Positions 596 to 43,304 of a stretch of 64,000 nt of DNA are shown here, one piece after another; the first letter of the stretch is position 1, and each line of letters opens with the position of its first letter. Both the position numbers and the translations under genes were made by a program. A model generated the notes under the pieces. It had not been told where the DNA came from and searched no databases. It was given only the letters and a program-made list of their open reading frames with translations. Origin of the DNA: an uncultured Bdellovibrionales bacterium (GTDB taxonomy: Bacteria; Patescibacteriota; Minisyncoccia; Moranbacterales; UBA2206); NCBI GenBank assembly GCA_964538685.1, contig CAZIFD010000002.1:13255-77254 (forward strand), written 5' to 3'.

Positions 596-794
596 CTGAT
601 GGATAGAAAACTTAGTGTTTCCACTATATTATACGGCGGAAATAAAGGCAAATTGAAGAAATAAAGCTGTGCGCTTTAGCGTTTTGTGGAAAAAGTGATG
701 TGAGTGCGTAAACTTGATAAATTTTCATAAAAATGCAATACTTATTCATACAATATTGCCTAAACTTGCCAACAGCAAGCATGGCTCAAATAAT

Positions 795-950
795 CCTAGC
801 TAACAAAAACGGCCTCATGGTCGGCGCTTGTTAGCTAGGTCGGTTTTCTGAAAAGAAATCCGGGCATATTCGAAAGAATATGTCGCCTGATCCGTGAGGC
901 TTTTTTTGTTCTTTAAAAATTTAGATTAATAATTAAACCTAGCTAACAAC
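795..950 (+). promoter_or_regulatory. Structured leader upstream of ORF 951: a 12-bp-stem hairpin (795-806 / 828-839) whose arm sequence recurs at 938-949 abutting the start codon, a palindrome at 865-882, and a hairpin + T-run at 884-908
   Basis: Read directly: 'cctagctaacaa' at 795-806, its reverse complement 'ttgttagctagg' at 828-839, and 'cctagctaacaac' at 938-950 immediately before ATG 951. Also 'catattc gaaa gaatatg' at 865-882 and 'gcctgatccgtgaggc' followed by 'ttttttt' at 884-908. Confidence 0.4.
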
Positions 951-2394: not shown

Positions 2395-3024
2395 TTATCT
2401 GAAAAGCAGGCTTTCTTCGATAATTTTGTCTTTTATTTCTTCATAATACCCATAGTCATTTCTTTCATATTTTCTAAAAATTGCCCAACTGACAAAATCC
2501 ACTGCCTGCAGACATTTTTCCGTATGAGATGCTTTAATTTTTATTTCAATTCTCCCATTATTCCCTCTTTTCACCAGATTGTCCTTCAAATATTTTTCAA
2601 AGTTCTCCCTGATAAATTTATTCGTATCTTTTTTGTCTATATAAAGACTGATTGGCTCATCAATCCTGATAAGTCTCCTGTTATGCAACCGATCTAATAA
2701 TATGTTAGCAGTATAGTTGTATAGATAGTTTTTCTGACTTTGCAGATCTACATAAACTTTCTTTTTGTTTAAAACAACGCAGAGTACCTTCAAATCATCT
2801 AGTTCGCACAATTTCCTCAGCATCCTATGTTTTGTGATCGCATCAGAATGATAGGCATGCAACTCTCTTAGCTTGTATTTCTTCTTTAGCCCTCTCCTAA
2901 TATTTTTGATAACCTTTTCAATTTTCTTGTGATCGTTAGTCAAGACAATCGTAAAAAGAAACCATTTACTTGAAGTTTCTTTAAAACCAAGATCTCCGCT
3001 CTCGTCTAAAAATATATGCGCCAT
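2395..3024 (-). CDS. DUF3800-family protein
   Basis: N-terminus MAHIFLDESGDLG matches the hallmark DUF3800 start (hIDESG). Size 209 aa. Spacing and orientation suggest co-transcription with the HD gene upstream. Confidence 0.55.
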   Translation of the reverse strand: MAHIFLDESGDLGFKETSSKWFLFTIVLTNDHKKIEKVIKNIRRGLKKKYKLRELHAYHSDAITKHRMLRKLCELDDLKVLCVVLNKKKVYVDLQSQKNYLYNYTANILLDRLHNRRLIRIDEPISLYIDKKDTNKFIRENFEKYLKDNLVKRGNNGRIEIKIKASHTEKCLQAVDFVSWAIFRKYERNDYGYYEEIKDKIIEESLLFR

Positions 3025-3033
3025 TTTTATTTA

Positions 3034-3582
3034 CTATTTCTTTATAAACTTTTCAACCCACCTATTAAATATTTTCACCTTATCGTCACCAAACTTTAAC
3101 GCTTCAGCCCTGATCATTTCAGGACTTTTTTCTTTAGATAAAAATTCTTCGTTTTTTGTAAAGAATTTATCTGCAAAACAAACTATTTTTTCCTCTACGG
3201 AAATTGGGATCATATCCCTTTTGGGGATGGGTAACTTTTGTTTTTCAATATCTTTTATCGAAATTCCTACTCCCATATGTCTTTCACAAACTAATGCATG
3301 CTTTGGGAAACCCTCTTTTTCCAAAATTTCTCTACCCAAATATCCATGACAAATGTAAGGTTCTTTTCCGAAGCATCCAATTTCCGGAGTATTAGTCAAA
3401 AAGATCCCAATATCATGAAGCATGGCAGATTCCTCAATAAATTTTAAATCAGGATTAAGATGAGAAACATTTTTTCCAATTTCAACAGCTTTTTTAGCAA
3501 CCGCCTCACTATGTTTTACTAAAAATTTATAAGCTTTAGAATCTACCTGGTAATATTTTTGGATTATCTTTAATGGATCCAT
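3034..3582 (-). CDS. HD-domain phosphohydrolase
   Basis: HD motif ...AMLHDIGIFL..., plus downstream His/Asp residues (HGYLGREIL, CFADKF). 182 aa. Confidence 0.7.
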   Translation of the reverse strand: MDPLKIIQKYYQVDSKAYKFLVKHSEAVAKKAVEIGKNVSHLNPDLKFIEESAMLHDIGIFLTNTPEIGCFGKEPYICHGYLGREILEKEGFPKHALVCERHMGVGISIKDIEKQKLPIPKRDMIPISVEEKIVCFADKFFTKNEEFLSKEKSPEMIRAEALKFGDDKVKIFNRWVEKFIKK

Positions 3583-3678
3583 ATATTTCTATTTTAGCAT
3601 AAAACCACATTTCGGTGGCTTTGGAGATTTACCCATTTTTCGAAGTGATTAGGTCACCTTCGATACTATGAGCTTGAT

Positions 3679-3780
3679 GCGGGCAATGTCGGTCTAGAAC
3701 TTTCAGATATCAAGTATTATAAGGATTTTTTGAGATTCGTCTATACGCAGAATTTAAGGCTCCTCGGTCGCAATTTTGAA
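3679..3780. repeat. Right copy of the direct repeat flanking the DUF3800/HD cassette
   Basis: See 2097..2199. A 23-bp identical core plus a second conserved block about 85 bp downstream. Confidence 0.6.
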
Positions 3781-3916
3781 GGGCAAATGAGACACCAGAC
3801 AGCCCTTGTCTTATTTTGGAGAAATAAGACGGTAACCTGTTTCATTTAGACATTGCTACTTATCTATAAACTTTGGTAGAATATAATAGGAAATAAGCAA
3901 TTTAATCAAGTTAAAC

Positions 3917-4546
3917 ATGATATATATAAAAGAAGATTCCATTGTAGATGCTTGGAAAAAAAGCATTAAGGAGCTTTATTTAAAAGGCATAGAATCACAA
4001 AAAGGAGAATTTTATAGATTTTCACATGCTATTATTGAAATCTCAAACACAACATCTAAAGATACATATGATGAAAATTTTCCAATGTCTAAAGAAAGTA
4101 TTGATATCATTAACAATTATCTCTTAACAGGAGAAAATGAAGACAAGGTGATTCATGATTGGACAAAAATTTATAGAAACAGGCTATTTGCAAAAAAATA
4201 TAATCAAATAAAACAAATCATCGAATATCTTAGAAAAAAACCCACTGGAAAACGCGCACAAGCTTCAATTTGGAATCAAGAAGTAGATTTGTACGGAAAA
4301 ATCAGCCCATGCCTTCAATTATTGTGGTTTCAAATAATCAATGGAAAACTTGAAATGCATACCCATATGCGAGCAACGGATTGCTATGGAAAACTTCTTA
4401 TGAATATTAACGAATTTATTACATTGCAAAATTTTATTGCTAAAAAATTAGAATTAAAAAGTGGACTCTATGTTCAATTTATTGACTCACTTCATTTTAA
4501 TTCAAACGATAAAGAGCTAATAGATAATCTCCTAGAAAAAATTTAA
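3917..4546 (+). CDS. Compact thymidylate synthase-like / dNMP hydroxymethylase-like enzyme (209 aa)
   Basis: Alignable by eye to the ThyA core: RAQASIWN (ThyA RRIIVSAWN), ISPCLQLLWFQ (ThyA APCHAFFQF, catalytic Cys), NGKLEMH (DGKLSCQ), RATDCYGKLLMNINEFITLQ (RSCDVFLGLPFNIASYALL), DSLHFNSND (DTHLYSNH). It lacks the N-terminal segments of full-length ThyA. Confidence 0.65.
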   Translation: MIYIKEDSIVDAWKKSIKELYLKGIESQKGEFYRFSHAIIEISNTTSKDTYDENFPMSKESIDIINNYLLTGENEDKVIHDWTKIYRNRLFAKKYNQIKQIIEYLRKKPTGKRAQASIWNQEVDLYGKISPCLQLLWFQIINGKLEMHTHMRATDCYGKLLMNINEFITLQNFIAKKLELKSGLYVQFIDSLHFNSNDKELIDNLLEKI

Positions 4547-4634
4547 AGCCCATGCACAGTTTGTGCTACATGAGCTTTTGTTGGTTATTTTGGTTGTTTT
4601 CAATAAGCTTTCACATCCCCACAATTGGGAAATA

Positions 4635-5192
4635 TTAGAGGCTGTTCAGGTAGTGCTCGTAGATGACTTCGGCAAGTTCCTGATCGCTGCCCTCATGCGT
4701 CGTTACGCACAAGCTGAAATATCCATCGTAGAAGCCCTGATGAAATGCTTGTAGCTCATCTCTGGCTTCAGTAATTCTAGATCCATCCTTATCGCGATTG
4801 TCTTTTGCCAATCTTTTTTCCAATTCCTCGAGAGAGGGTGGAAGTAGATAGACTACACACAATCGGCCTGCAAACGCTTTGGTCATTATGCCTAACCGAT
4901 TCACTGGCCAATCCAAGACTGGAAAGCGTAATTCGTTTAGGGCTGTGGTAATGGGGACGATCGGAGTTGCGTATCGTATGCCATACTTCTCGTTTACCGT
5001 GAGAAATTCTCCGCGTTTAATCATCTCGTTCATGGCGTCATCAGAGATGCAGATTTTGTCTGTTTCACCATCTCTGAGCGTTCTTGTCATATACGGAGAA
5101 ATGTACACAAAGCGCTTATCTAGTTTACAAAGTTGCACTATGATAGTGCTTTTTCCGACGCCTGAAGCACCCAGCATATGTGCTTGCCCCAC
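4635..5192 (-). CDS. Guanylate kinase-like nucleoside-monophosphate kinase
   Basis: Walker A GASGVGKST; SPYMTRTLRDGE resembles Gmk S-TTR-PR-GE; LLPPSLEELEKRL resembles Gmk ILPPS-ELDRRL. The local GC is visibly higher than in flanking DNA. Confidence 0.7.
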   Translation of the reverse strand: MGQAHMLGASGVGKSTIIVQLCKLDKRFVYISPYMTRTLRDGETDKICISDDAMNEMIKRGEFLTVNEKYGIRYATPIVPITTALNELRFPVLDWPVNRLGIMTKAFAGRLCVVYLLPPSLEELEKRLAKDNRDKDGSRITEARDELQAFHQGFYDGYFSLCVTTHEGSDQELAEVIYEHYLNSL

Positions 5193-5241
5193 CCTCTCAG
5201 TGCGCGCACAAAAGTCCGCCCACTATGCGGACGGCTCCCAT

Positions 5242-7461
5242 TTAATTCTGAGTCGCAGTATTAGAAAACTGTTCTTCAAGTATTTGATAATGTTCGGGAA
5301 ACACAGTTTTCATCATCTCAAGCAAATACTTAATATTTTTTTGTGCCTCTGGCGCTAACGAAGGATCAAAACCATCACCAGTGATATGTGATTGATCGTT
5401 GGTAAACTTATAGATCGCAGTTTTTTTATCCTCGTCAAAAACAAGTTTTTCCATTTTCTTGTACGGATTTTCTCCATTCGGTACTCTAAACATTAAAAAT
5501 GTATCAAGGACTTTTCTGGCAACATTCGGTATATGGTAAACAGAGGCAATGCTCCCATCAGTTTCAAATGTATATAAAACCTTAAACAAGTAGTGGTACT
5601 CACTCTCATGGTCTCTCAATTCTTTATCGAGTTCTGAAATAAACGCTGTTCTTCTATCGGTTGTAGAATACTGATTTTTAATCATGTAATACTTATGACC
5701 GCTAGTTCTATTTAGCCAATTCAAGATAAGTTTCAGAAAATTGAAGTTGTGTGTAAAAATGAAAACTTGTTTTGCATCTTTTACCGCATTCTTTAGAAAG
5801 GCAAAGGCTTGAAAAAGTGAATTTGAATCAAGACTTGAGATAGGATCGTCTACAACTATTATGCCATTCGCTACATCAAAATTTTGGTCTTTCAAATGCA
5901 CAACAAAATACACAAATGCAATAGCTGTTTTCTCACCTTCGCTTAAATTCTTTGCAATCACGCCACTACGCTTGACAACATAACCACCCTCAGGAGTTAC
6001 TTCGAAAGTAATCTCATTTCTACCTAAAAATGTTTGTAGTCGTTTATTAAGTGTATCGCATGCTTTATGTTCAGACGAAATCTTGTTTTTGTTTTCAGTT
6101 ATTTTTTTCTTTAAGGCTACAATTCCAACAAAAGCTGACGGTTCATCACCATTTTGAAGTTTTGAAATTTCTTTTTCACACTCTTTAATTTCCGAATCAA
6201 AGGTTTTTACTTCATCAAAAATTTCACTCAAATGGTGTGCTTTCAATAATTCAACGGCTCTGTCTTTCTCTGTTTGGAAATTATCACTCTTTTGATTATG
6301 TTGCTCTATGGTCTCATTTACAGAATCAACGGAAGATTGAAAATTGTTGCTCAATGATCTTGAAAAAGTCACTTCCTCTGTAGTCTTTTGTTTTTTGGAA
6401 TTCAAAATTTCAACCATAGCCGACAATTCGGCGCAGTAGTTATCTTTTTCTTGATTGTAAGTTATAGATCGTGATGTAAACGATGTCTGTAAATCGGTAT
6501 AGAATTGAGCTTTGTTTGGCAATTGAATTGCTTTAATCGTCTGAATAGACTGCTGGAGATTAGTGATTTTCGTGTCTATTTTCTCTTTTAACTTTTTATC
6601 TGCTTCATTGAAATGACCAAGCAATGCTTCAATTCTACCTTTCGGCAAATCTGAACCACAGAATTCGCATTGCTCACTCTCTTTTGTGTGTAAAGTTAGT
6701 CCATGTTCAACCCACGCTGAAATCTCTTGACTCTCGGCAAGTCTACTAATGACATTTATTTCAACGGTTTCTTTGCAAATACCTATAACTTCATCATAGA
6801 CACCAGACAAATCTAGGTCTGAAGTAAGATTGATTTTTGTTATTTTATCTTTCTGCTCCTGTTTAATGACTGCCTGTTGTTTAGCAACCTCATCGGCACT
6901 TAAAATTTTCTTTTCTGTGATAGATTCAAAATCTTTTTCAGCGTCTGGTTTTCTATAATTTCTTGTAGATGATCCAACGAGATTTGCTCCAATAACTTTT
7001 GCTACTTCGGTAAATTTGTTGGCTTTATCAGATTCTTTTCTTGTTTTCTCGGTTTCTTTGGCGCTTTTTTGAGTTTCAAGATTGGCTAAAGTTTCTTCAT
7101 CAGTTTTGATCTTATCGGCAATCTCTTTATTTTCCTCTCCGAGAATAAAAATAGGGTTTGCCTTGCCACTCACTAACTGCACATTTTTCTGTATGTAGTC
7201 CTGATTGAAAACTCGTATTTTTTGATTGAATTGAGAGTTTTCTTTTACAGTTCCACTCTCGTGTTCAATATCATATTCTAAATCGGAAAACTCTAGCGAA
7301 TTACCGTCTTCAAGACACGCAAATAATTTTGATAAGGTTGTTTTTCCTGAGCCATTCCAACCATAAAAAAGATTGTATTTATCAAAATCATTCAAATTAC
7401 TATCCCATGTGTAATCAGAGAATAATCCAAGATTTTTAATTTTTTTTAGCTTCTTTATCAT
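5242..7461 (-). CDS. RloC/AAA_13-like ABC ATPase with a coiled-coil insert and a CxxC zinc-hook-like motif (candidate anticodon-nuclease-type abortive-infection protein)
   Basis: Walker A GWNGSGKTT. Long Lys/Glu-rich coiled coil containing CEFCGSDLP. ABC signature LSEGEKTAIAF. Walker B IIVVDDPISSLD. C-terminal ~200 aa domain. It overlaps the 3' end of the upstream MTase gene by 26 bp. Confidence 0.55.
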   Translation of the reverse strand: MIKKLKKIKNLGLFSDYTWDSNLNDFDKYNLFYGWNGSGKTTLSKLFACLEDGNSLEFSDLEYDIEHESGTVKENSQFNQKIRVFNQDYIQKNVQLVSGKANPIFILGEENKEIADKIKTDEETLANLETQKSAKETEKTRKESDKANKFTEVAKVIGANLVGSSTRNYRKPDAEKDFESITEKKILSADEVAKQQAVIKQEQKDKITKINLTSDLDLSGVYDEVIGICKETVEINVISRLAESQEISAWVEHGLTLHTKESEQCEFCGSDLPKGRIEALLGHFNEADKKLKEKIDTKITNLQQSIQTIKAIQLPNKAQFYTDLQTSFTSRSITYNQEKDNYCAELSAMVEILNSKKQKTTEEVTFSRSLSNNFQSSVDSVNETIEQHNQKSDNFQTEKDRAVELLKAHHLSEIFDEVKTFDSEIKECEKEISKLQNGDEPSAFVGIVALKKKITENKNKISSEHKACDTLNKRLQTFLGRNEITFEVTPEGGYVVKRSGVIAKNLSEGEKTAIAFVYFVVHLKDQNFDVANGIIVVDDPISSLDSNSLFQAFAFLKNAVKDAKQVFIFTHNFNFLKLILNWLNRTSGHKYYMIKNQYSTTDRRTAFISELDKELRDHESEYHYLFKVLYTFETDGSIASVYHIPNVARKVLDTFLMFRVPNGENPYKKMEKLVFDEDKKTAIYKFTNDQSHITGDGFDPSLAPEAQKNIKYLLEMMKTVFPEHYQILEEQFSNTATQN

Positions 7462-8245
7462 AATTTTTTTGATCTATAAAACCCTGTATTCTATTTCTTG
7501 CAAGATCGACATATTTCTCATCTTTCTCGATACCAAGCCATTTGCGACCAAGTGCTTCCGCAACAACAGCAGTTGTTCCGCTTCCCATAAAAGGATCAAA
7601 AACAATGTCGCCTTTGTTGCTAGAGGCTAAAATCACTTGTTGTATAAGTTTAAGAGGTTTTTGTGTTGGATGTGCTTTTATTCCGTTTTCGTCTTTAAGT
7701 CTTTCATTGCCCTTACAAAGACCAAAGACCCAATCTGTATCTTTCATTTGTTTTCCTCCATTCAGTTTTTTCATAAATTCATAATTGAAAGTGTATTTTT
7801 TGCAATCTTTATTTTTTACAGACCAAATCAAAGTTTCGTGATTGTTTGTAAATCTGCGACCATTTAAATTTGGCAGGGCATCAGTTTTCACCCAAATAAC
7901 ATCATTTAAAAACCAAAGTCCGAGATTTTGCATTATTGTGCCAACACGAAAAATATTGTGATACATCCCAATAATCCAAAAAGTTCCTGTTGGCTTTAAA
8001 ATTCTTTGACATTCACTAATCCAAGCATGAGTGAAACTGTCATAATGTTCATAACTTTCAAAGCTATCCCATTCATTATTAACTGGGATAATCTCTGAGC
8101 CGTCGGCTCGTTTTAATCTCTTACCTTTTGGAAGTTGTAAATAATATGGAGGGTCTGCAAAAATTAAATCGACAGAATTATCTGGGATTTTCTTTATTTC
8201 CTCAATACAATCACCATGTATAATTTTGCCAAAATATTTTTCCAT
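7436..8245 (-). CDS. Beta-class amino-DNA methyltransferase (N6-adenine or N4-cytosine), DpnA-like in size
   Basis: Motif IV DPPY (LIFADPPYYL) precedes motif I (VFDPFMGSGTTAVVA), which is the beta-class order. 269 aa. Confidence 0.85.
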   Translation of the reverse strand: MEKYFGKIIHGDCIEEIKKIPDNSVDLIFADPPYYLQLPKGKRLKRADGSEIIPVNNEWDSFESYEHYDSFTHAWISECQRILKPTGTFWIIGMYHNIFRVGTIMQNLGLWFLNDVIWVKTDALPNLNGRRFTNNHETLIWSVKNKDCKKYTFNYEFMKKLNGGKQMKDTDWVFGLCKGNERLKDENGIKAHPTQKPLKLIQQVILASSNKGDIVFDPFMGSGTTAVVAEALGRKWLGIEKDEKYVDLARNRIQGFIDQKNYDKEAKKN

Positions 8246-8247
8246 AA

Positions 8248-9369
8248 CTAAAAATTGTAGATGACAAGGTGTTCAACATCTCTATCGTTTCGACCTTTTA
8301 CATTATAGAGATAGGTTTTATCAAATCTATCAATTTTTATTCCTTTTCTATTTTTATATAAGCTAGAAATAAAAGGCGTGTCTTTAATAATCAAAATGAA
8401 TTTCGCTTTTGTTTCATAAAGACATTTTGCCAGACGCTCCTGATCTTTTTTGTCAAAAGTTGCTTTTTCGTAATCACTGAAATCAGTATCGTATGGTGGA
8501 TCAAGAAAAATAAAATCTTTTTCAGTGAATTTATATTCATTAAAAATTTTCTCAAAATCTTGATTTTTAATGACCGTATTCTTAAAAAGTTTTTTTACTT
8601 CATCGCTAAAAATATGATCTACTTTGCTTCGAAAGTCTTTGTTGTTATAAGCAATACCACCATAAGGAATATTGAAATGACCACTACTGTTAAATCGAAA
8701 CATTGAAGCGTAGCAAAATTCACGAATGAAGTAGTAATTTGCAATTTTTTTAGGAAGACTCGTTGGAAACTTGCTTCCGTTGTAATTCATAACATCACGA
8801 AAGTGCATATAAAAACCGCTTCGGAAAGCTGTTTCAATATTTTTTTGCAAATCACCCTCCGGTAATTTACCTCTTTGTTTCTCAATCTCTCTCGTTCTAG
8901 AAATTTTTGAAATAAGGTTTGAGGAAATTTGCTTTAATAAATTTTGCTCGTCTAAACAGAAATCTTTATGAAAAAGCCCATTAAAACGCTCCTCTTCCTT
9001 TTTCAGAATTGTATTTACTTGTTTTGATAGTTCTATTTTTGAAATTTCATCGTGCCTATATAACTCATAAAGTTTTATAATTTTATTTTCAAATACACTG
9101 ATATATTTGGGAATTTTTTCCCAGTTATTGACATAATTGTATAACTCCCTTTTAAAAACCTCTCTTTGTTTACCTTCTTTTAGTAGAGTATAAAAATCTG
9201 TTAGTTCAGAACAAATATCATTGATGATTGATTTTTTGGGCTGTAATTGAAAGAAAATTGCACCACCACCAAAAAACGGCTCGATATAACGATCAAAAGC
9301 TGGAATTAAATCCTTTATGTAAGGATATTCTTTTGTCTTGCCACCAGGCCATTTTATAAGTGTTTGCAT
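8248..9369 (-). CDS. Dam-like (alpha-class) N6-adenine DNA methyltransferase
   Basis: N-terminus MQTLIKWPGGK...FFGGGAIFF (Dam-family motif I), then FLDPPYDTDF (motif IV) later. Confidence 0.85.
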   Translation of the reverse strand: MQTLIKWPGGKTKEYPYIKDLIPAFDRYIEPFFGGGAIFFQLQPKKSIINDICSELTDFYTLLKEGKQREVFKRELYNYVNNWEKIPKYISVFENKIIKLYELYRHDEISKIELSKQVNTILKKEEERFNGLFHKDFCLDEQNLLKQISSNLISKISRTREIEKQRGKLPEGDLQKNIETAFRSGFYMHFRDVMNYNGSKFPTSLPKKIANYYFIREFCYASMFRFNSSGHFNIPYGGIAYNNKDFRSKVDHIFSDEVKKLFKNTVIKNQDFEKIFNEYKFTEKDFIFLDPPYDTDFSDYEKATFDKKDQERLAKCLYETKAKFILIIKDTPFISSLYKNRKGIKIDRFDKTYLYNVKGRNDRDVEHLVIYNF

Positions 9370-9370
9370 A

Positions 9371-10198
9371 CTAGTCTAAATAAGTTTCTTTTATCGATTC
9401 GAGTGCTGATGTAATAAGGTGTGCGTTTTCTTTATATGTTTCCAAAACTATGTCGTAACCATCATCCGACTTACAGACAAAATTCCAAAAATCTTTTCCA
9501 ATCAAAAGTTCATCTTTTGAAAAAAATTGTAGAACCCGTCCTTGTTTCCATTCTTTATCTTCGCCAAACCTATTATAAGCAGTTGCAAAGTAAGCCTTTA
9601 TTTTTGCATCTTTTCCTAAAGCATTTGAGAGAATTGCATATTGCTCAAAAATAGCTTCCTTTTCAGATCGTGCTTTTTTGTTATCTAAATCTCCCCCTAT
9701 CTTCAACTCAATTAAATGATGAGTATTTGTTTCTTTATCAATAAGATAATAATCACTCACATGGACTTTTGATTTTAGTTTAGAATTTGGACTGGGTTTT
9801 ATTCTTCTTATTTCATCGTAATGAGATAATTGTGGGACTAGAGGATTTTTTGTGTTTTTATAACCTTCCAAAAGTTCGGCTATTTTTGATGTCTGTTCTG
9901 GATATAAATTTCCTTCAACACTTTTATTCACTTCATAAAAGAGTTTAGCAATATTGATAGCCATTCCCTCAAGCATATTTCCAAGAGAGCTATCTAAAGA
10001 ACGAACAAGGGCAGAATAATACTGAATATCTAAACCGAGGGCGGCGATAAAGACATTGTGAATTTTCATATTGATAACCCCATTTGGATTATCAACCTCT
10101 CCTTCATGTCTTGCCTTAAAACCAGTTGCATACGATTCCACTGCTGTCCTAACAATGGATTTTATAGCGTCTTTTTTGTTTAATGTGTTTTTATTCAT
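9371..10198 (-). CDS. Putative Type II restriction endonuclease (inferred from its position in the operon)
   Basis: 275-aa ORF sits immediately between the C-protein gene and two DNA MTases, with a 1-bp gap to the next gene. ...LIELKIGGDLDNKKARSEKE... may hold the PD-(D/E)xK-type catalytic core. The organisation mirrors DpnII-type cassettes (Dam-like MTase + second MTase + REase). Confidence 0.45.
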   Translation of the reverse strand: MNKNTLNKKDAIKSIVRTAVESYATGFKARHEGEVDNPNGVINMKIHNVFIAALGLDIQYYSALVRSLDSSLGNMLEGMAINIAKLFYEVNKSVEGNLYPEQTSKIAELLEGYKNTKNPLVPQLSHYDEIRRIKPSPNSKLKSKVHVSDYYLIDKETNTHHLIELKIGGDLDNKKARSEKEAIFEQYAILSNALGKDAKIKAYFATAYNRFGEDKEWKQGRVLQFFSKDELLIGKDFWNFVCKSDDGYDIVLETYKENAHLITSALESIKETYLD

Positions 10199-10203
10199 AA
10201 TAA

Positions 10204-10488
10204 TTATTTTAAAAGTTGATCTACGCTCACACCAAGCACTTTGGCGACCTTTTCCATTGTGCTAATTGTAAGATTTTGTTTGCCATTCTCAACATTACTA
10301 ATATACGCTCGGTCTAAACCTAACTCTCGGCAAATGTCGCCTTGCGACATGCCTTTTTCGAGTCGTATTTTTTTCATGTTTTCGCCAAATTTTTGTGCTG
10401 TGGTTTTTGCCATATTGTATGAAAACTTATCAACATGGTTATTATAGCACTCTCTTGTGTTTTGACTCAATGTTAAGTTATAATACAA
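10204..10488 (-). CDS. XRE-family HTH regulator (RM controller C-protein candidate); the true start is probably the internal Met at 10413 (MAKTTAQKF...)
   Basis: HTH: IRLEKGMSQGDICRELGLDRAYISNVENGKQNLTISTMEKVAKVLGVSVDQL. It is the first gene of the RM operon, consistent with C-protein architecture. Confidence 0.6.
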   Translation of the reverse strand: MYYNLTLSQNTRECYNNHVDKFSYNMAKTTAQKFGENMKKIRLEKGMSQGDICRELGLDRAYISNVENGKQNLTISTMEKVAKVLGVSVDQLLK

Positions 10489-10518
10489 GTGTGCAAAACA
10501 GTATTTTTATGAAGCGTC

Positions 10519-10612
10519 GGAACCAAAACCAAAAATTTTCCTTTCCATTTTTTGCCGGCTCCCCCACACCCCCCGCTGAAAGAGGAATTGTAAGGAAATT
10601 TTTGGTTTTGGG
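10519..10612. promoter_or_regulatory. Large inverted repeat (about 21-22 bp arms, ~50 nt spacer) between the C-protein gene and the serine recombinase gene
   Basis: 'ggaaccaaaaccaaaaattttcctt' (10519-10543) matches the reverse complement of 'aaggaaatttttggttttgg' (10592-10612) with one indel. A C-rich spacer and the GC palindrome 'ggcgcgaagcgcc' (~10748-10762) follow. Confidence 0.5.
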
Positions 10613-10819
10613 ATCGCGACCGAAGGGAGCGTGCGAGGCGCAAGTATCATTCGTCAAAATCCTGCGGATTTTACCCGAAATACATTCGAACTTTGTCCAA
10701 TACACACCGCCAAAATTGAAAATCGGAATCGGAAGCAAAAATGCGGTCGGCGCGAAGCGCCGTCTGTTCTGAATTCCCCCCAAAAAATCCTGAATCTGAA
10801 AGGGTTCGCCAATACAATT

Positions 10820-12394
10820 ATGAATAATCAAACCAAAAAATTTTTCATTTATACTCGCAAGTCTACGGACGACAAAGACAGACAAGTCCGCAGTATTTCT
10901 GACCAATTAGCTGAGCTGAAAAGTTTAGCGTTAAAAGAACAACTGGAAGTGGTAGATGTCTTTGTCGAAAAGCAGACCGCCAAAATACCAGGTCGGCCAG
11001 TGTTTAACGAAATGTTGGAGCGAATGGAGAAAGGCGAAGCGACTGGTATTTTGGCATGGCACCCCGACAGATTGGCGAGAAATAGTGTTGATGGTGGAAA
11101 AATTATCTACCTCGTTGATACTGGTGTAATTTCCGAAATGAAATTTCCAACTTTTTGGTTTGATCCGACACCGCAAGGCAAATTCATGCTTTCAATCGCT
11201 TTTTCGCAATCCAAGTATTATGTGGACAATTTAAGCGAGAATATAAAGCGTGGTAAGCGAAACAAAGTGAAAGACGGAATATGGCCTCAAATGTCTCCGC
11301 TTGGATATGTGAATAAAAATAGAAAGATTGTTCCCGATGAAAATATCGCACCCTTAATCAAGAAAACATTTGAGGCATATTCGTCTGGGTCTTTCACTTT
11401 GCGCGAACTTCGTGACAAATTTAACGGACTTGGATTGAAGCGAAAAAGCGGAAAGGAACTTGCGGTGTCGAATTATCAAAAACTTCTCAAAAATCCTATT
11501 TACACTGGTCTAATGCTCTACAACGGAGAGATTTTTGAGGGCAAGCACGAACCGATTATCACAAAGAAGCTTTTTGATTCTGTTCAAGAAGTGATGATGA
11601 GAAAATCTCAACCGAAAGGAAAAGGACTAAAGCCATTTTTGTATAGAGGATTTTTCCGTTGTGGGGAATGTGGCTGTTTCATTACCACCGAAACGCAGAA
11701 AGGTCATAACTATTTGCGATGTACCAAACGGAAAAATCCCTGCTCACAAAAATATGCTCGCGAGGAAATCATCACTTCAGAAATTCAAAAGGAAATCAAA
11801 AAAGTTTCTTTGCCAGACGATTGGGCTTCTTGGATGTTAGTGGAAAACGAAAAGGATAAATTGGTGGAAGCCCAATCGTCTACGCTTTTTGCAGACAACA
11901 CAAAAGCCGAAATTTCTCTTTTGGATTCCAAGATTGAGAAGCTGATGAACGCCTATTTAGAGAACATACTTTCGCTAGAAGAATATCGGGATGTTAAAAG
12001 TGCGTTAGTGAACCAAAAACAGCTTCTCAAAGAGAAATTATCGGCTTTTGAGCAAAAAGCGAATAATCGGTTCGAACTTGCCGAAAAGTTTTTAAAATAC
12101 AATGTGGAATTGGCAAACGAGGGAATAAATGAAGAGAAACTTCATTTATTCAAAAAAGTCGGTTCGAACTTTATTATTGAAGCTCGAACCGTACTTTTTG
12201 AGCCACGCGGAGCGTGGAAAAACCTTTTGAATTCGGGAATTCTTGGCGGGAATGCATTTGTGTCGGCGCTTCGCGCCGACCGCATTTTTGCTTCCGATTC
12301 CGATTTTCAATTTTGGCGGGCTACTCGAGTTAAGTACCCACGATATACAAGCATTGTAAGGCTTTTTGAGCGATCTGTAAATGGTTGGATTTAA
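10820..12394 (+). CDS. Large serine recombinase (integrase)
   Basis: Start reassigned to MNNQTKKFFIYTRKSTDDKD (resolvase catalytic-Ser motif YxRxST). Recombinase domain, Cys-rich zinc ribbon (CGECGCF...CTKRKNPC) and C-terminal coiled coil. The track ORF begins upstream at 10631. Confidence 0.85.
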   Translation: MNNQTKKFFIYTRKSTDDKDRQVRSISDQLAELKSLALKEQLEVVDVFVEKQTAKIPGRPVFNEMLERMEKGEATGILAWHPDRLARNSVDGGKIIYLVDTGVISEMKFPTFWFDPTPQGKFMLSIAFSQSKYYVDNLSENIKRGKRNKVKDGIWPQMSPLGYVNKNRKIVPDENIAPLIKKTFEAYSSGSFTLRELRDKFNGLGLKRKSGKELAVSNYQKLLKNPIYTGLMLYNGEIFEGKHEPIITKKLFDSVQEVMMRKSQPKGKGLKPFLYRGFFRCGECGCFITTETQKGHNYLRCTKRKNPCSQKYAREEIITSEIQKEIKKVSLPDDWASWMLVENEKDKLVEAQSSTLFADNTKAEISLLDSKIEKLMNAYLENILSLEEYRDVKSALVNQKQLLKEKLSAFEQKANNRFELAEKFLKYNVELANEGINEEKLHLFKKVGSNFIIEARTVLFEPRGAWKNLLNSGILGGNAFVSALRADRIFASDSDFQFWRATRVKYPRYTSIVRLFERSVNGWI

Positions 12395-14229: not shown

Positions 14230-15585
14230 ATGCAAAAAGCAAGCAACAACGAAATCGTAGAAGAAAAACTTCACGTGCAGTATGTTCCGACTGCTGATCT
14301 CAAAACCGCGGACTATAATCCGCGTAAATGGAGCAAGGAAGCTGAAGCTCAGCTTCAGGAGAGTATAATTTCTTATGGACTGGTTGATCCGTTTATCGTG
14401 AATGCCGCTCCACAAAGAAAAAATGTTTTAATCGGAGGACATTTCCGATTGAGTATTGCTAAAAAATTGGGAATCAAAGAGGTGCCAATTGTTTACATTA
14501 ATATTCCAGACTTGGAAAAAGAAAAAGAATTAAACATTAGGTTAAACAAAAACACTGGTGAGTTCGATTGGGAAATGCTGGCCACCTTTGACGAGCAATT
14601 TCTTTCGAAAGTTGGCTTCTCCTCTGAAGAATTAGACGACATTTTCCACATAGAAGATAATCCGGAAGAATTTGATTTAGAAAAAGAACTGGCCAAACTC
14701 AAGATAGATAAAATTGAAATCAAAAAAGGAGATGTTTGGATGTTGGGCGATTCGAAATTATGTTGCGGCGATTCAACCATTGAGGCAGATATGCAAAAAC
14801 TCATGAGAAATGAAAAAGCCGATATGTGCTTTACTGATCCACCTTACATCCTGGATTATCTTCATGGAAAAAAGAAAAATGGAAAGCCAATCACAGGATT
14901 CGGGGCAAAACGTGATCGTAGATATTTGGAAACCGATTCATTACCGGATAATTTTACAGAGTTGTGGATGAAAAACATAAAGACAATATCTAAAGATGAT
15001 TTCCATATTATTGTTTACGAAAATTGGAAGAATCTCAGAATCATCTGGGGCGAAATGGAAAAATATTGGAAAGTAAAAAACATGATAGTTTGGCATCTGC
15101 CCAATCGAGTGCAGGGCTTTGCCGCTAAATATAAGTTCTTCAATAAGCATGATATTGCGATGGTAGGTACTTCTCATGAGAAAATAGAGCTTAACACTGA
15201 TCCGGAAGACAAGATTTTGGAAGAAGAATATCAAACAGCTCTCTACGCTATTTCAGGTAAACCACATTGGGAAGGATATGAGAAAGGCAAAAGGATTTGT
15301 CCAACTGATTTCATTGAATTCAACGCTGATGATGCAAAACACTCTGGTCAAGGAATAATCTTCGGAACAAAACCCCTGGAAATTCTCATTCCATACATCA
15401 AAGTACTTACCAAGCGTGGAGATTTGATTGTGGAGCCATTTGGTGGATCAGGCTCGACTCTCATGGCCGCAACCAAAATGAATAGAAGATGCTACCTTAT
15501 GGAGAAATCGCCAGTATATGCTGAAGTGATAAAAAATAGGTGGGAGAAATTAACAGGCAGGAAGGCTCAAAAGATAAATGGATGA
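14230..15585 (+). CDS. ParB-like nuclease domain fused to a beta-class DNA methyltransferase (phage/plasmid-type orphan MTase)
   Basis: N-terminal ParB/Srx motifs (DYNPRKWSKE ... IGGHFRLSIAKKLG ... VPIVYI). Then motif IV FTDPPYILDY and C-terminal motif I VEPFGGSGSTLMAA. Confidence 0.8.
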   Translation: MQKASNNEIVEEKLHVQYVPTADLKTADYNPRKWSKEAEAQLQESIISYGLVDPFIVNAAPQRKNVLIGGHFRLSIAKKLGIKEVPIVYINIPDLEKEKELNIRLNKNTGEFDWEMLATFDEQFLSKVGFSSEELDDIFHIEDNPEEFDLEKELAKLKIDKIEIKKGDVWMLGDSKLCCGDSTIEADMQKLMRNEKADMCFTDPPYILDYLHGKKKNGKPITGFGAKRDRRYLETDSLPDNFTELWMKNIKTISKDDFHIIVYENWKNLRIIWGEMEKYWKVKNMIVWHLPNRVQGFAAKYKFFNKHDIAMVGTSHEKIELNTDPEDKILEEEYQTALYAISGKPHWEGYEKGKRICPTDFIEFNADDAKHSGQGIIFGTKPLEILIPYIKVLTKRGDLIVEPFGGSGSTLMAATKMNRRCYLMEKSPVYAEVIKNRWEKLTGRKAQKING

Positions 15586-15979
15586 GAAAAATAACTTTGA
15601 TGAAACAATTGAGAAAAGACAGGAAGAATTAAAGCAAGCCATTATTGACCAGCTCAAAGAAACTCCAATTATAACCGTAGCCTGCAAAAGATCAGGCGTT
15701 GGTCGAGCAACTTATTACCGTTGGCGAAGCGAAGATCCACAATTCACCATGGCGATTAATTCCGCCCTTAAAGAAGGTATTGAACTTATAAACGACCTGA
15801 GTGAGTCTCAAATAATCCAGCTTATCAAGGAAAAGAAGCTTCCGGCTATTTCGCTGTGGTTAAAACATAATAATCCTCGTTATGGAGGAAGAAATATGCG
15901 CAGAGATTTGCCTGTTGCTCCTGAGCCTTTAACTGAAGATGAAGAAAAGCTATTCAAAAAAGCTTTGGGGCTAAAATAA
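15578..15979 (+). CDS. Phage terminase small-subunit-like HTH protein
   Basis: HTH ITVACKRSGVGRATYYRWRSEDPQF. Overlaps the MTase gene by 8 bp and is followed directly by the terminase large-subunit ATPase ORF. Confidence 0.5.
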   Translation: MDEKNNFDETIEKRQEELKQAIIDQLKETPIITVACKRSGVGRATYYRWRSEDPQFTMAINSALKEGIELINDLSESQIIQLIKEKKLPAISLWLKHNNPRYGGRNMRRDLPVAPEPLTEDEEKLFKKALGLK

Positions 15980-17087: not shown

Positions 17088-17636
17088 TTATTTATAAAAC
17101 AACTCGTGATTTCTGAGTTCATTCTTTATTTCCAAATAATCTGGCATGAGTTTTTCAACCAGCGACCAGAACCTTCTGGAATGGTTAAATTCTTTTAAAT
17201 GGCATAACTCATGGACAATAATGTAGTCCTGTTGCTTTTTTGGCAGAAAAATAATTTTGTAGTTGAAATTGAGGTTCCTATTTTTAGAACAGCTACCCCA
17301 ACGAGTCTTGTGGTTTTTGATATTTAAAGCATTATATGAAAAAGCAAATTTTTTACTAAATACTTTGATGCGAGCAAGGACTAATTGAACTGCTTCGTCT
17401 TTATGCTTTAAATAGTCATCCTGAGAAAAAGTTCGGATAGCTTTGCTATCAATACTCTTAAAGAAATTTATTTTATCAGTCAGCCATTGTTTTTTGTCTG
17501 CAATGAATTTTTCAATTATTGTTTGATTTATTCCGAAAGGAGTAGTAATAACAACACTGCCATCACAATAAACAGCCAGTCGCATTCTTTTGGCTCTTTT
17601 GCTTTTCTTGATAATGTATTTCGGCTTTCTAATCAT
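17088..17636 (-). CDS. DUF45/YgjP-like (M48/WLM-type) metal-dependent hydrolase, the usual hsdR-downstream partner
   Basis: HELCHLKEFNHSRRFW (HExxH...H). Sits 5 bp downstream of hsdR, a common arrangement in Type I RM loci. Confidence 0.7.
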   Translation of the reverse strand: MIRKPKYIIKKSKRAKRMRLAVYCDGSVVITTPFGINQTIIEKFIADKKQWLTDKINFFKSIDSKAIRTFSQDDYLKHKDEAVQLVLARIKVFSKKFAFSYNALNIKNHKTRWGSCSKNRNLNFNYKIIFLPKKQQDYIIVHELCHLKEFNHSRRFWSLVEKLMPDYLEIKNELRNHELFYK

Positions 17637-17641
17637 ATTAC

Positions 17642-20557
17642 CTAAAATTTCTTTATGATAATATCCACAAGCCTATTCATGAATTTAGGAAAATCTTTCA
17701 CAGTAAACTTTTCCCTATAATCTCTCAGGATAAGCTCCTGTAGTGTTTGTTTTATGTCTTTGATAAACGTATCTCGCTTAGAAGATTCTTGCCATCCAGC
17801 ATCCGTATCATCTTCAATCCTTGCTCTCAGCTCTTTTACAAAATCTTTGATATCATTTTCTTGGGCATCGGAAATAAATTCTTGAGAAATAACATAAAGA
17901 GCATATTCTCTTAAATCCATCCCCAGATTTTTAGCTTCTTCTCCCTTTGTTTTAATATCTTTCATCAATTCTTCATAGCGTCGGATACGCTCTGCCAAAT
18001 CAATCTGATTCTGTTCAAATTCACGGCGAATTGCTCCAAGCCTTTCACTAAATTTCTGATACGCCGGATCCTCATCAAGATTGATAGAAATTTCTTGTTT
18101 CAGCATCTTTTCAAGATTGAGGGCTTTTTCCTCATCACCCATATCCTTTAGGCGTTCCAGCGTATAAAGCTCATTGACTTTAAGCTCACGAAAGTTTTTT
18201 GTGATACCCTCATAGTCTATAATATTACTTTCTCGAATAAGATTCTTAACTTTTTCTCCATACTCTTCCAACAAATAACGATCATCTTCACTACGAAAAT
18301 CTTTCAAAAATGCCAAATAGAAACTTGTTACCCATTCAAAAGGTCGAATATATTGTTTCAGGAACGGATCGGGAGAAAGAAATTCAAACAAGCTTTTTAG
18401 TTTGGCATATTTTTCGGCAAAATATTTTTGCTTGTCTTGATTGTCGATGAAAATCTTCAAACATCTGCGAAGATTATCCATTGAAGGATCTTCGATGTTA
18501 ACTCCTGTAAAAATTTTCATAACGTCGTTCATAACATCAGAAAATTTCGCCTTCACTCGTTCGATATCGATCATAGCCGAATCAATTACATCCTCGTCAA
18601 AGTCCAAAGCATTATAGAGATTTCTGGTAATTCCGTAATAATCAATGATTTTCCCAGCTTCCTTGTTTTTATAAACCCGATTCGTTCTGGCAATCGCCTG
18701 CAGGAGATTATGATCACGTAGGGGTTTATCAAGATACATCACTTGTTCAATTGGCGCATCAAAACCAGTTAACAACATATCGCACACAAGCAAAAACTTT
18801 AGAGATGAATTCGGATCTTTGAACTTTTCAATAATCTGCTCCCGCTCTTTTTTGCTGGTATTATAAATTTTCAAATCGTCAGCATCACTATTTGGATCCC
18901 CAGGAGAATACACAACCGCTGACCATTCTGCCGGAACGAGCTTGTCAAACAATTTTCTATAATCTGCCACCGCTTCGCGATCATAGGCAACTACCTGTGC
19001 CTTGAAACCATTTGGCTCAACATACAATTTATAATGCTCGACAATATCTCTTGCAACTGCCTCCATTCTTTTTGGAAGCTTTACTAATGCCGCCTTCTTG
19101 CCATATTTCTTTACCAATTCCGTCTTTTGTTTGTCAGACAAGTCACTCGCAATCTCATCGAATTGCTTATCTAGCTTCTCTTCATCAATGGAAAATTTAG
19201 AAAGACGTGCCTCGTAGGTAACTGGGATTGTCGCTCCATCATCAATGGCCTCTTGAATTGAGTAATAATCCAGATAGCGTTTTCCTTCACCTTCATAATT
19301 TCTGAAAGTGTTGGTATGAGTTTTATCTACTGGTGTGCCGGTAAACCCAAAGAAGAATGCTTTTTTGAAAGCATTTCTCATGTTTATTCCTGAAACTCCC
19401 TCATCTCCACGATGAGCCTCATCGGAAAGAATTATTACATTCTCATCCAAATTTTCGACTTCGTTGCCAAGCTCCGAAAACTTTTGAATAGTCGTGATAA
19501 ATATTCCGCGTTCCGGTGATTGTATTTTTTCTTCCAAGTCTTTTCGCGAGGTAACACGGACAATATTTTTTCCTCCGGCATTGGTAAAAGTATCAAATAT
19601 TTGTTGATCCAAGTCTACTCGATCCACCAAGATGAAGATTTTTGGATTTTGCAATAATTTATTAAAACGCAATTTCCAAGCCGTAAAAAACATTGTGAGA
19701 GTTTTTCCTGAACCTTGTGTGTGCCAAATAAGCCCTTGGTGTTTTTCCTTGTTCACTACACGATTAACAATCTTATTTGTGGCTCTTAGTTGTTGATAGC
19801 GAGCAATCTTTTTAACCAGTTTCTCTTTTTCTTTTTCAAACAAAATGAAATTTCCGACAATATCCAATAGATTAGGCTTGTTAAGTAGAACAAAGAGAGT
19901 CATTTCCAATTCCCCTCCCAGTTCTTTTTCCAAGTCCTCGTCTCGCCACTGTAAAAAGTATTGTTTTGGCGCATAAGTTGCTCCGTAAACAGTTTTTAGT
20001 CCGTCACTGGCAATATTAAAGCAGTTTGGGAAAAATAATTTGCGTGCCACTTTTTCATATCTTTTAATCTGATCAATTCCATTCTCAAAGGTCACACTTT
20101 CCGAAGCAGTTGGGCTCTTAGCTTCAATATCAACTAGCGGCAGACCATTTACAAAAATCATGACATCCGGTCGGATGTTTTCGGTGTCACCTTCGAAATA
20201 GAATTGATTAGTGGCAACAAAGTGATTATTTTCAGGATTTTCAAAATCAAGTAATTTATAATCCTGCATTTTTCCAGTCTTTGAACTTTTCAAGTTGATT
20301 CCTTCGCGCAAAGCCTTTAGAAATCCTTCATTAGTGTCAATTTTGTTTACTTCTCTAACTACACTGACAATCTCATCATCATTTGCGTCAGGATTATTTT
20401 TTTTGATTGCATTCTCAAGTAAGGACTTTATTATATATTCACTTTCAAGACTCCTAAGTTTTGAAAATTCTTCGGGTTTAATATATTCATAATCAAGTTT
20501 GTCTTTTATGAATTTGATTATGTAATTTTCAATTGTTACTTGTTCGTTAAATTTCAT
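17642..20557 (-). CDS. hsdR: Type I restriction enzyme R subunit
   Basis: N-terminal nuclease region. SF2 helicase motifs TQGSGKTLTM (motif I) and ILSDEAHRG (DEAH). 971 aa. Confidence 0.9.
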   Translation of the reverse strand: MKFNEQVTIENYIIKFIKDKLDYEYIKPEEFSKLRSLESEYIIKSLLENAIKKNNPDANDDEIVSVVREVNKIDTNEGFLKALREGINLKSSKTGKMQDYKLLDFENPENNHFVATNQFYFEGDTENIRPDVMIFVNGLPLVDIEAKSPTASESVTFENGIDQIKRYEKVARKLFFPNCFNIASDGLKTVYGATYAPKQYFLQWRDEDLEKELGGELEMTLFVLLNKPNLLDIVGNFILFEKEKEKLVKKIARYQQLRATNKIVNRVVNKEKHQGLIWHTQGSGKTLTMFFTAWKLRFNKLLQNPKIFILVDRVDLDQQIFDTFTNAGGKNIVRVTSRKDLEEKIQSPERGIFITTIQKFSELGNEVENLDENVIILSDEAHRGDEGVSGINMRNAFKKAFFFGFTGTPVDKTHTNTFRNYEGEGKRYLDYYSIQEAIDDGATIPVTYEARLSKFSIDEEKLDKQFDEIASDLSDKQKTELVKKYGKKAALVKLPKRMEAVARDIVEHYKLYVEPNGFKAQVVAYDREAVADYRKLFDKLVPAEWSAVVYSPGDPNSDADDLKIYNTSKKEREQIIEKFKDPNSSLKFLLVCDMLLTGFDAPIEQVMYLDKPLRDHNLLQAIARTNRVYKNKEAGKIIDYYGITRNLYNALDFDEDVIDSAMIDIERVKAKFSDVMNDVMKIFTGVNIEDPSMDNLRRCLKIFIDNQDKQKYFAEKYAKLKSLFEFLSPDPFLKQYIRPFEWVTSFYLAFLKDFRSEDDRYLLEEYGEKVKNLIRESNIIDYEGITKNFRELKVNELYTLERLKDMGDEEKALNLEKMLKQEISINLDEDPAYQKFSERLGAIRREFEQNQIDLAERIRRYEELMKDIKTKGEEAKNLGMDLREYALYVISQEFISDAQENDIKDFVKELRARIEDDTDAGWQESSKRDTFIKDIKQTLQELILRDYREKFTVKDFPKFMNRLVDIIIKKF

Positions 20558-20964: not shown

Positions 20965-20966
20965 AT

Positions 20967-21260: not shown

Positions 21261-21347
21261 AGATTTTTTATTAATTTATTATTTACCCTAACTTCCCAAC
21301 TCAAAGATCTTGCGTCAGACCTTTTTTTGAGTTGAGCAGTTTAGATT

Positions 21348-23271: not shown

Positions 23272-23275
23272 AATG

Positions 23276-24864: not shown

Positions 24865-24890
24865 ATTTTTAGCAAATTAGTTTTTTAGAG

Positions 24891-30058: not shown

Positions 30059-30131
30059 TTCAATTTTTTATGTCTTCGGGTCGCTCATTCGTCTCGATAG
30101 AATGGGTCTATCCGATAAAAAATTGTCGATG

Positions 30132-43289: not shown

Positions 43290-43304
43290 AAATTTATCCT
43301 TAAG

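Follow-up and report, generated by a model that had tools for sequence, protein, structure and literature searches.

Gene organisation of the locus

The DNA analysed here is a 64,000-nt stretch of contig CAZIFD010000002.1 from an uncultured bacterium (the window), whose minus strand carries, between positions 5242 and 10488, five successive open reading frames (ORFs) for a Type II restriction-modification (R-M) system and an ATPase of the RloC type. In the direction of transcription these are the genes for a controller (C) protein with a helix-turn-helix (HTH) fold (10204-10413, 69 aa), a restriction endonuclease (9371-10198, 275 aa), an alpha-class DNA methyltransferase (MTase) of the Dam family (8248-9369, 373 aa), a beta-class MTase (7436-8245, 269 aa) and the ATPase (5242-7461, 739 aa). 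The beta MTase and ATPase genes overlap by 26 nt, and the remaining gaps upstream of them measure 2, 1 and 5 nt.

Profile searches led to a clear assignment for each product. The C protein matched HTH_3 in Pfam (PF01381, E = 9e-17) and Control_protein in PADLOC (E = 2e-18); as in C-protein-controlled R-M systems, a small HTH_3 protein is therefore encoded by the first gene of the unit. The nuclease matched RE_TdeIII (PF09520; E = 8.7e-36; 124 bits, cut-off 27; profile positions 5-239 of 242), a family that carries the name HinfI in the newer Pfam release, and is by its sequence a Type II restriction endonuclease of the TdeIII/HinfI/HpyAIV superfamily. Its catalytic core, D148...E165-x-K167, aligns with the D..ExK residues of an HpyAIV-family enzyme from the related locus L106 (relatives are designated by L numbers). 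The alpha MTase matched MethyltransfD12 (PF02086, E = 6e-34) in two stretches, which are parted by an enlarged middle region (about aa 72-182), and exceeded the cut-off of the NCBIfam dam model (TIGR00571; 159 over 115 bits), its motif order being FxGxG near the N-terminus and DPPY near the C-terminus. The beta MTase matched N6_N4_Mtase (PF01555, E = 2e-65), and the ATPase AAA_13 (PF13166, E = 1.2e-135, positions 4-705 of 713). Because every gene has a strong profile match, an identical locus is present in an independent read-set assembly (L001) and an activated-sludge contig (L089) carries a collinear R-M-M-ATPase block with 86% DNA identity, the five ORFs do not form such a series by chance.

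The ORF of the C gene reaches back to a TTG at 10488 (94 aa), yet ATG 10413 is the most likely start, as the orthologue of the closest relative L082 (94% identical) is called at 69 aa and a promoter-like site lies within the longer ORF. This site (10441-10470, minus strand), TTGAGT-18 nt-TATAAT with a TG extended -10, is the best minus-strand match (10 of 12 positions), and its sequence is kept in L082 and L083. So is the palindrome TTGAGTCAA, which overlaps the -35 hexamer and may be regarded as a candidate operator for the C protein; a second C-box repeat beside TTGAGTCAA was not identified at this promoter. At the other end of the unit, 8 nt past the ATPase stop codon, a GC-rich terminator-like hairpin followed by a T-run was found (5214-5234, minus strand). 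It is the only minus-strand terminator-like site from 10500 to 5200 and lies within a 66-nt tail that is kept together with the ATPase gene in L082, L088, L091, L092 and L100. The gene overlaps, the single promoter-like site before the C gene and the single terminator-like hairpin past the ATPase gene support an operon C-R-M-M-ATPase, and the five genes are probably co-transcribed.

An original prediction made from the letters of the window had proposed five linked minus-strand genes with a 26-bp overlap and small gaps, an operon organisation, a putative restriction endonuclease in the 275-aa ORF and the gene classes C-type HTH, nuclease, Dam-like alpha MTase, beta MTase and AAA_13 ATPase, all of which were recovered. 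Its upper limit of 10488 corresponds to an existing ORF, although not to the likelier start of the C gene.

The RloC-type ATPase

RloC proteins were defined by a size of 658-897 aa, PrrC-like ATP-binding cassette (ABC) motifs, a Rad50-like coiled-coil insert with CX2C, and a C-terminal Arg-X3-Glu-X36-52-His, in which Ser often precedes His (PMC2610378). With 739 aa the window ATPase falls inside this range, and it contains the motifs already read from its sequence in the original prediction, namely Walker A (GWNGSGKTT), the ABC signature LSEGEK (aa 506-511), Walker B (IIVVDDP) and the zinc-hook motif CEFCGSDLP (aa 265-273). To follow conservation, two sets of homologues (21 and 73 sequences; lowest identity 48%) were aligned. 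Among the 73 homologues, G34-x-N-G-x-G-K40-T, L506-S-E-G-E510, D538-D539-P and the switch H571 were invariant or nearly so, and the hook residues C265 and C268, putative zinc ligands, were invariant. The C-terminal pattern reads R649-x3-D653-x38-S691-H692; in both alignments R649 and H692 were invariant, S691 was conserved in at least 90% and position 653 was always D or E.

These observations agree with further profile matches. The ATPase matched the PADLOC single-gene candidate PDC-S06 (E = 5e-253) and the PADLOC PrrC profile (E = 2e-12), the latter along the second ABC lobe and on through the nuclease domain (aa 441-724 aligned to positions 91-347 of 372); many homologues carry the IMG name 'wobble nucleotide-excising tRNase'. 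In an AlphaFold model (mean predicted local distance difference test score 84.9) the ABC head is split by long helices, with helices 109-160 and 276-479 flanking the CxxC turn, and the C-terminal domain is all-helical. A fold search of the PDB gave Rad50 as the top match (7zr1_C of the Mre11-Rad50-Nbs1 complex, E = 4e-6), with Lamassu LmuB and SMC heads among the other best matches. PDB searches with the sequence, single or as a profile, found no solved relative, and generic ABC, Rad50 and AriA fragments appeared at E >= 7e-4.

The likeness to RloC therefore comprises the domain plan and size class, the CX2C hook, the Arg-X3-acidic-X38-(Ser)His pattern, the AAA_13 match and the IMG/COG name of the homologues, and at the sequence level every defining feature of RloC is present, as suggested by the RloC/PrrC-type layout of the original prediction. 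The protein is presumably a tRNase. PrrC of the Type Ic system EcoprrI is similar in that an anticodon nuclease of the ABC-ATPase/HEPN type, carried by an R-M locus, forms a second line of defence, but PrrC has about 340-420 aa, lacks the coiled-coil/zinc-hook insert and is always found in Type Ic hsd loci. With its 739 aa, a helical insert of about 370 aa, Type II flanks and only partial profile similarity, the window protein was not assigned to PrrC. Moreover, PrrC is kept silent through its physical association with the HsdMSR complex (PMC2610378, PMC3458546), a mechanism that is not simply transferable to the window, where the partners are separate small Type II enzymes.

Exchange of the R-M cassette on a mobile island

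Comparison with the 742-kb chromosome of L082 revealed two shared flanks around an unrelated core. From the recombinase through the C gene (window 12319-10200) the DNA is 87% identical, and the similarity stops 4 nt past the C stop codon; it resumes 7 nt before the ATPase ATG and continues, at 93% identity, until 66 nt past the stop codon of that gene (7468-5177). The 2.7 kb in between encode HinfI-type R-M-M genes in the window and DpnII-type M-R-M genes in L082, so that the gene orders are C-R-M-M and C-M-R-M, respectively. The same C gene and ATPase gene bracket the cassettes of L091 and L092. An R-M cassette has thus been replaced precisely between conserved flanking genes. In no relative examined does the similarity to the window ATPase gene reach further than 7 nt upstream of its ATG, and a conserved promoter of the ATPase gene's own was rejected for this reason.

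Divergent from the C gene lies a gene for a large serine recombinase (10820-12394, plus strand; the ORF starts at GTG 10631, the probable start being ATG 10820) with the Pfam domains Resolvase, Recombinase and Zn_ribbon_recom and 87% DNA identity to the recombinase of L082. It is flanked by a pair of inverted repeats, termed X, the inner arm of which (10707-10811, 105 nt) is 84% complementary to the outer arm (12215-12319); the equivalent pair in L082 measures 131 nt at 97%. The outer arm forms the left end of the DNA common to L082 and thereby the island boundary. There homology sets in at CCGCCAAAATTG; in L082 this sequence directly adjoins a tRNA-Ser at its 3' end. A second repeat, Y, contains a long hairpin (10509-10710; DNA fold z = -2.6) and is present as a single copy in the window. 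In the relatives a second, inverted Y downstream of the ATPase gene brackets the module, and the window holds the proximal copy only. The L082 module C-R-M-ATPase is bracketed by perfect 204-nt inverted repeats (100%), and copies of Y occur at both ends of the short metagenome contigs L083, L091 and L092 and flank the lone ATPase gene of L084. The layout of the long inverted repeats (window 10509-10811 and 12215-12319; L082 3261-5125 and 10554-10831) can be written as X-recombinase-rcX.Y-(C-RM-RloC)-rcY (rc, reverse complement). The repeat segments meet at a common junction, with ACACCGCC on one side and AAAATTG on the other, which in L082 is the 3' end of the tRNA-Ser.

Neither simple att sites nor an inverton fit these repeats cleanly, and in the window the distal Y is missing. 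The repeats may act as ends of a transposon-like kind, as sites of inversion or as arms of recombination sites, and the contigs L083, L091 and L092, which end in the repeat, might reflect inversion or multi-copy ends. The island itself is mobile, as the flanking genes differ between the window and L082. ARAGORN detected no tRNA at the island ends of the window, unlike in L082 and L084, and a search against Rfam gave no known RNA in the repeat or the intergenic region.

Genomic context of related ATPases

The wider family was surveyed in 80 species-representative genomes with ATPases of 30-83% identity. The R-M genes of the window were found beside the ATPase gene in none of the 80, from which it follows that this specific cassette is not an ancestral partner of the family. 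A census of Pfam neighbours showed hsdS upstream in 14 of 69 cases, hsdR domains downstream in 7-8 of 71 and a few Type IIG/III-like enzymes, and no alpha or beta Type II MTase among the upstream families listed (the best 25 of 71). A different picture emerged for 19 distinct contexts of close relatives (ATPases at least 63% identical): in 12 of them Type II genes of eight cargo kinds lie within a few genes upstream of the ATPase gene, whereas the wider family is mainly linked to Type I systems. The 19 contexts are not phylogenetically independent, and the cargo diversity implies repeated events.

The cassette of the window type is shared with L089, and a decayed version with a PF09520 nuclease, HNH and Bro-N genes and a remnant of the window-type beta MTase lies upstream of the ATPase gene in L088. 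True DpnII (PF04556) cassettes with a C gene take this place in L082/L083, L091 and L092, DpnI with a beta MTase in L100, a RadC-Dam fusion with an AlwI nuclease and a beta MTase in L087, HTH and NspV fragments in L101, a CcrM-like MTase with an HpyAIV-type nuclease and a second beta MTase in L106, and two Dam-family MTases with an insertion sequence fragment in L107. In L085 an EcoRI-type methylase gene precedes the ATPase gene and GmrSD/HNH genes follow it. The ATPase gene of L090 is located within a Type I locus (hsdM-ATPase-hsdS-rhuM-hsdR), and six contexts (L084, L102, L104, L105, L002 and L095) have no recognisable R-M neighbour. The end of the preceding methylase gene runs into the start of the ATPase gene, by 26 nt in the window and by 4 nt in L082, L100 and L089.

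RloC genes were described as 'rarely' R-M-linked, the linked cases (8 of 72) belonging to Type I or III only (PMC2610378), and ABC-HEPN proteins as "often found in R-M operon" (PMC3710099); these published descriptions do not specify Type II operons as hosts of RloC. An R-M-linked ABC-HEPN anticodon nuclease is known already, and the unusual feature is the Type II linkage: in contrast to the published genes, those of the window clade stand last in Type II operons (the 12 of 19 contexts), and the window unit in addition has a promoter-like site for C-protein control. The attachment to a Type II cassette with two MTases, singled out in the original prediction, is real and recurrent.

Two further observations concern individual relatives. 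In L100 (4237-6004) the gene for a DpnI-family nuclease, which depends on methylated GATC, lies directly upstream of that for a beta MTase, which shares 91% identity over its last 239 aa with the DpnA-like MTase from the DpnII cassette of L082 but has a different N-terminus of 106 aa; the pairing would be paradoxical if the product of the methylase were G(m6A)TC. Three close ATPase homologues, in L002 (2230-4449), L094 (499-2724) and L095 (7947-10209), are broken into two or three ORFs and represent pseudogenes or else errors of assembly; if genuine, they would indicate that this potentially toxic gene is often inactivated.

Proposed function and alternative explanations

The identities of the genes, their operon-like packing, the hallmarks of RloC and the ATPase gene's recurrent place at the end, behind exchangeable R-M cores, lead us to propose a two-layered anti-phage operon on a mobile island, in which a C-controlled Type II R-M system acts first and an anticodon nuclease of the RloC family second. 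We put the probability of this interpretation at roughly 60%. The C protein would time the expression of the Type II system, so that host DNA is methylated and unmodified invaders are cut. RloC, made from the same transcript, would be kept inactive by its Rad50-like ATPase and zinc-hook switch and be released when an infection proceeds despite restriction. We infer that the trigger is most plausibly the binding of the head domains to DNA ends, which would arise from the neighbouring nuclease or from the attack of a phage on the host DNA. The R-M proteins and RloC may thus be functionally coupled. Once released, RloC would excise wobble nucleotides of tRNAs, translation would stop and the infection would be aborted. 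Such a trigger finds a parallel in RloC of G. kaustophilus (GkaRloC), the nuclease of which is activated by a DNA-dependent ATPase with linear DNA being far more effective than circular DNA, and in which hook mutations uncouple the switch (PMC3458546). It also fits the swapping of cargo, as a neighbouring Type II nuclease generates DNA ends whichever cassette is installed.

Several points weigh against the proposal. Double-strand breaks alone failed to activate the RloC of A. baylyi in vivo, and RloC was reported to have an internal switch and to require no R-M silencer (PMC3458546). Members of the same clade are solitary in L084, L102 and L104 and, together with the internal switch, suggest that adjacency may not mean functional coupling. 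In the window protein the acidic position of the triad is Asp instead of Glu. Finally, the top two fold matches of a separate model of the C-terminal domain (predicted template-modelling score 0.79) were HEPN domains, to which the PrrC and RloC nuclease domains have been assigned (PMC3710099), but with E-values of 0.6-0.75 and template-modelling (TM) scores of 0.42-0.52 these matches are not significant; the modelled fold would be compatible with the HEPN assignment and is no independent proof of it.

The main alternative, which we regard as less likely yet credible, is that RloC is an autonomous single-gene cassette that lands or is retained at R-M loci within defence islands, works by its own internal switch and is reached by incidental read-through. 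Besides the solitary members of the clade, those in the Type I locus of L090 and beside the Type IV-like GmrSD genes of L085 and L097 would be expected under this explanation, and so would homology that sets in no more than 7 nt from the ATG regardless of the upstream genes, which is the behaviour of a movable cassette. PADLOC holds a single-gene model (PDC-S06), and the internal switch of the anticodon nuclease would permit its transfer without a silencer (PMC3458546). On the other hand, the gene is repeatedly the last of an R-M unit, directly after a methylase gene with which its start overlaps, has no conserved upstream region of its own and kept its position through the exchange of the R-M cargo, and the linkage to Type II genes in 12 of the 19 close contexts is almost absent from the upstream families listed for the wider family.

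A more far-reaching version of the two-layered operon, which we consider unlikely and offer tentatively, would make the clade a dedicated guardian of Type II systems: the C gene, the RloC gene, the inverted repeats and the recombinase would form a platform for the exchange of unrelated R-M cores, and RloC would read DNA ends independently of the cargo. If the guardian function were true, it would provide a concrete source for the debated trigger of RloC and a modular defence 'chassis' in small-genome bacteria, probably Patescibacteria of the candidate phyla radiation (CPR).

The natural trigger of RloC and its relation to restriction have been under debate since 2008, and the described genes lie mostly apart from R-M loci. 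With RloC last in compact Type II operons and the cargo exchanged in at least eight ways, the clade is a natural experiment with small, clonable five-gene units, and the constancy of RloC across the exchanged cargos suggests a trigger common to all, be it DNA ends or the failure of restriction. If the linkage is incidental, the locus would represent two known defence systems side by side, well annotated. In either case the replacement of cassettes on a recombinase-associated island bears on how defence islands diversify.

It is very improbable that the ATPase is instead a Rad50/SMC-like DNA sensor without anticodon nuclease activity, which recruits or regulates the R-M enzymes or senses DNA ends in the manner of Lamassu: the fold matches of the model to Lamassu LmuB and retron PtuA-type ATPases, the PADLOC LmuB match (E = 2e-16), the Asp of the triad and the C-terminal domain without a significant structural match would suit this function, but the R-x3-[DE]-x38-SH pattern is invariant across the family and corresponds to the mutationally validated triad of RloC and PrrC (PMC2610378), the PrrC profile runs through the nuclease domain and HEPN domains head the fold matches of the C-terminal domain.

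The R-M system and its probable target

Among NCBIfam models the beta MTase matched CcrM best, with 378 bits over positions 5-255 of 350; as the C-terminal domain of CcrM is absent, the score stays short of the equivalog cut-off (830). The enzyme is predicted to consist of the catalytic and target-recognition core of a CcrM/M.HinfI-like MTase without this domain. The full-length CcrM-like MTase of L106 is 55% identical to it and is encoded directly beside a PF09520 nuclease that scores 241 bits on the HpyAIV equivalog model (cut-off 160). HpyAIV/M.HpyAIV is a Type IIP system with a beta-class MTase and the product G(m6A)NTC (PMC3936762), and its nuclease is encoded by hp1351 (PMC4917963). As the window MTase resembles an enzyme paired with an HpyAIV-equivalog nuclease, and HpyAIV recognises GANTC, this sequence is probably a likelier target than GATC, the guess of the original prediction, which is probably wrong.

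Three findings speak against GANTC. The window nuclease is not an equivalog of HpyAIV, and BLASTP aligned it to the L106 enzyme over the catalytic core only; it matched no NCBIfam family at E <= 0.01, including the HpyAIV equivalog NF045832. An AlwI-linked beta MTase also reaches 258 bits on the CcrM model, which is therefore not diagnostic of specificity. Across the 64-kb window GANTC is not depleted, with an observed/expected ratio of 0.88. That of GATC, 0.86, is equally uninformative. Of the interrupted palindromes GGNCC is depleted most, with 22 sites observed against 49 expected (ratio 0.44), and among 4-mers ACGT (0.33) and TCGA (0.49) are strongly depleted; as these match neither adenine MTase of the operon, they suggest past or present pressure from other restriction systems. 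Avoidance of target sites, with GGNCC outside the expected protection, was discarded as a clue to specificity.

The original prediction had described the system as DpnII-like and had suggested a search with the DpnII profile. A C gene, one nuclease and a pair of alpha (Dam-family) and beta adenine MTases are indeed the architecture of DpnII, and a true PF04556 cassette occupies the same slot in L082, L083, L091 and L092; the resemblance thus reflects a real cassette polymorphism, with a DpnII cassette at this position of the closest relative. The proteins, however, are by their sequences not of the DpnII family. The nuclease matches PF09520 and gave no PF04556 match in Pfam at E <= 0.01; the beta MTase is CcrM/HinfI-like and unrelated to the DpnA-like MTase of L082 (27% identity over 62 aa); the Dam-family MTase shares only 29-41% local identity with that of L082 and differs in its middle region; and the gene order is different. 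Membership in the DpnII family was rejected on the nuclease and beta MTase results, and a GATC system of the DpnII/MboI type, with incoming single-stranded DNA guarded by the second methylase, is hardly to be expected. A PDB sequence search with the window nuclease found no solved relative.

In Streptococcus pneumoniae, DpnII and DpnI are alternative R-M cassettes at one locus, and the DpnII cassette encodes the alpha MTase DpnM and the beta MTase DpnA. By analogy to DpnM and DpnA, the extra Dam-family MTase of the window may act on the same site in another form of DNA. The polymorphism resembles the situation found here in the pairing of alpha and beta MTases with one nuclease and in the alternation of unrelated cassettes in one slot, and the alternatives of this slot include both DpnII-family (L082, L091, L092) and DpnI-family (L100) cassettes. 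It differs in that the window cassette is not of the DpnII family and that the flanks are the C gene and the RloC gene, next to a serine recombinase and inverted repeats. From the HinfI/HpyAIV-type GANTC systems, which share the PF09520 nuclease and the beta MTase with CcrM as best model, and of which L106 has a canonical CcrM-like MTase/HpyAIV-equivalog pair next to a related RloC gene, the window differs by a nuclease without NCBIfam match, an MTase without the CcrM C-terminal domain, the extra Dam-family MTase and the C gene.

Neighbouring genes

As the homology to the L082 island ends at 5177, the genes at 2395-5192 lie outside the shared element. Immediately downstream of the operon a guanylate-kinase-like gene (4635-5192) is located in DNA with a local GC content of about 0.42 compared to about 0.33, followed by genes for an archaeal-type thymidylate-synthase-like protein (3917-4546), an HD-domain protein (3034-3582) and a DUF3800 protein (2395-3024). 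The pairing of the kinase and the ThyA-like gene (3917-5192) resembles nucleotide-modification modules.

On the other side, beyond the recombinase, a 451-aa fusion of ParB_N and an N6_N4 DNA methyltransferase (14230-15585, plus strand) is followed by the gene for a small HTH_Tnp protein (15578-15979) and represents an orphan or mobile-element-type methylase within the same island. A complete Type I R-M locus (17088-28414, minus strand) lies 7-21 kb from the RloC-type gene, with hsdR at 17642-20557, hsdS at 22072-23271 and hsdM, which encodes an N-terminal MerR-type HTH, at 26714-28414; it is flanked by a YgjP-like gene (17088-17636). Between hsdS and hsdM a SMODS/AGS_C nucleotidyltransferase gene (24891-26195), itself a restriction-linked ORF, and several unannotated ORFs are embedded. 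This Type I locus could be a partner of RloC in trans, as proposed for other RloC genes (PMC2610378). A second large serine recombinase gene (442 aa, 28691-30019, plus strand) adjoins a tRNA-Ser(gga) gene (30131-30218, minus strand), beyond which the housekeeping genes for pyruvate kinase and PolA are found, and a single composite defence island may span all of about 5.2-30.2 kb.

Further away, large minus-strand ORFs of 563, 279, 786 and 777 aa are located at 38449-45638; the Pfam scan covered those of 563, 786 and 777 aa and gave no match at E <= 1e-5. At 757-884 (plus strand) Rfam detected a LOOT RNA (RF03000) over the full length of the model, with 60.4 bits compared to a gathering score of 46.4.

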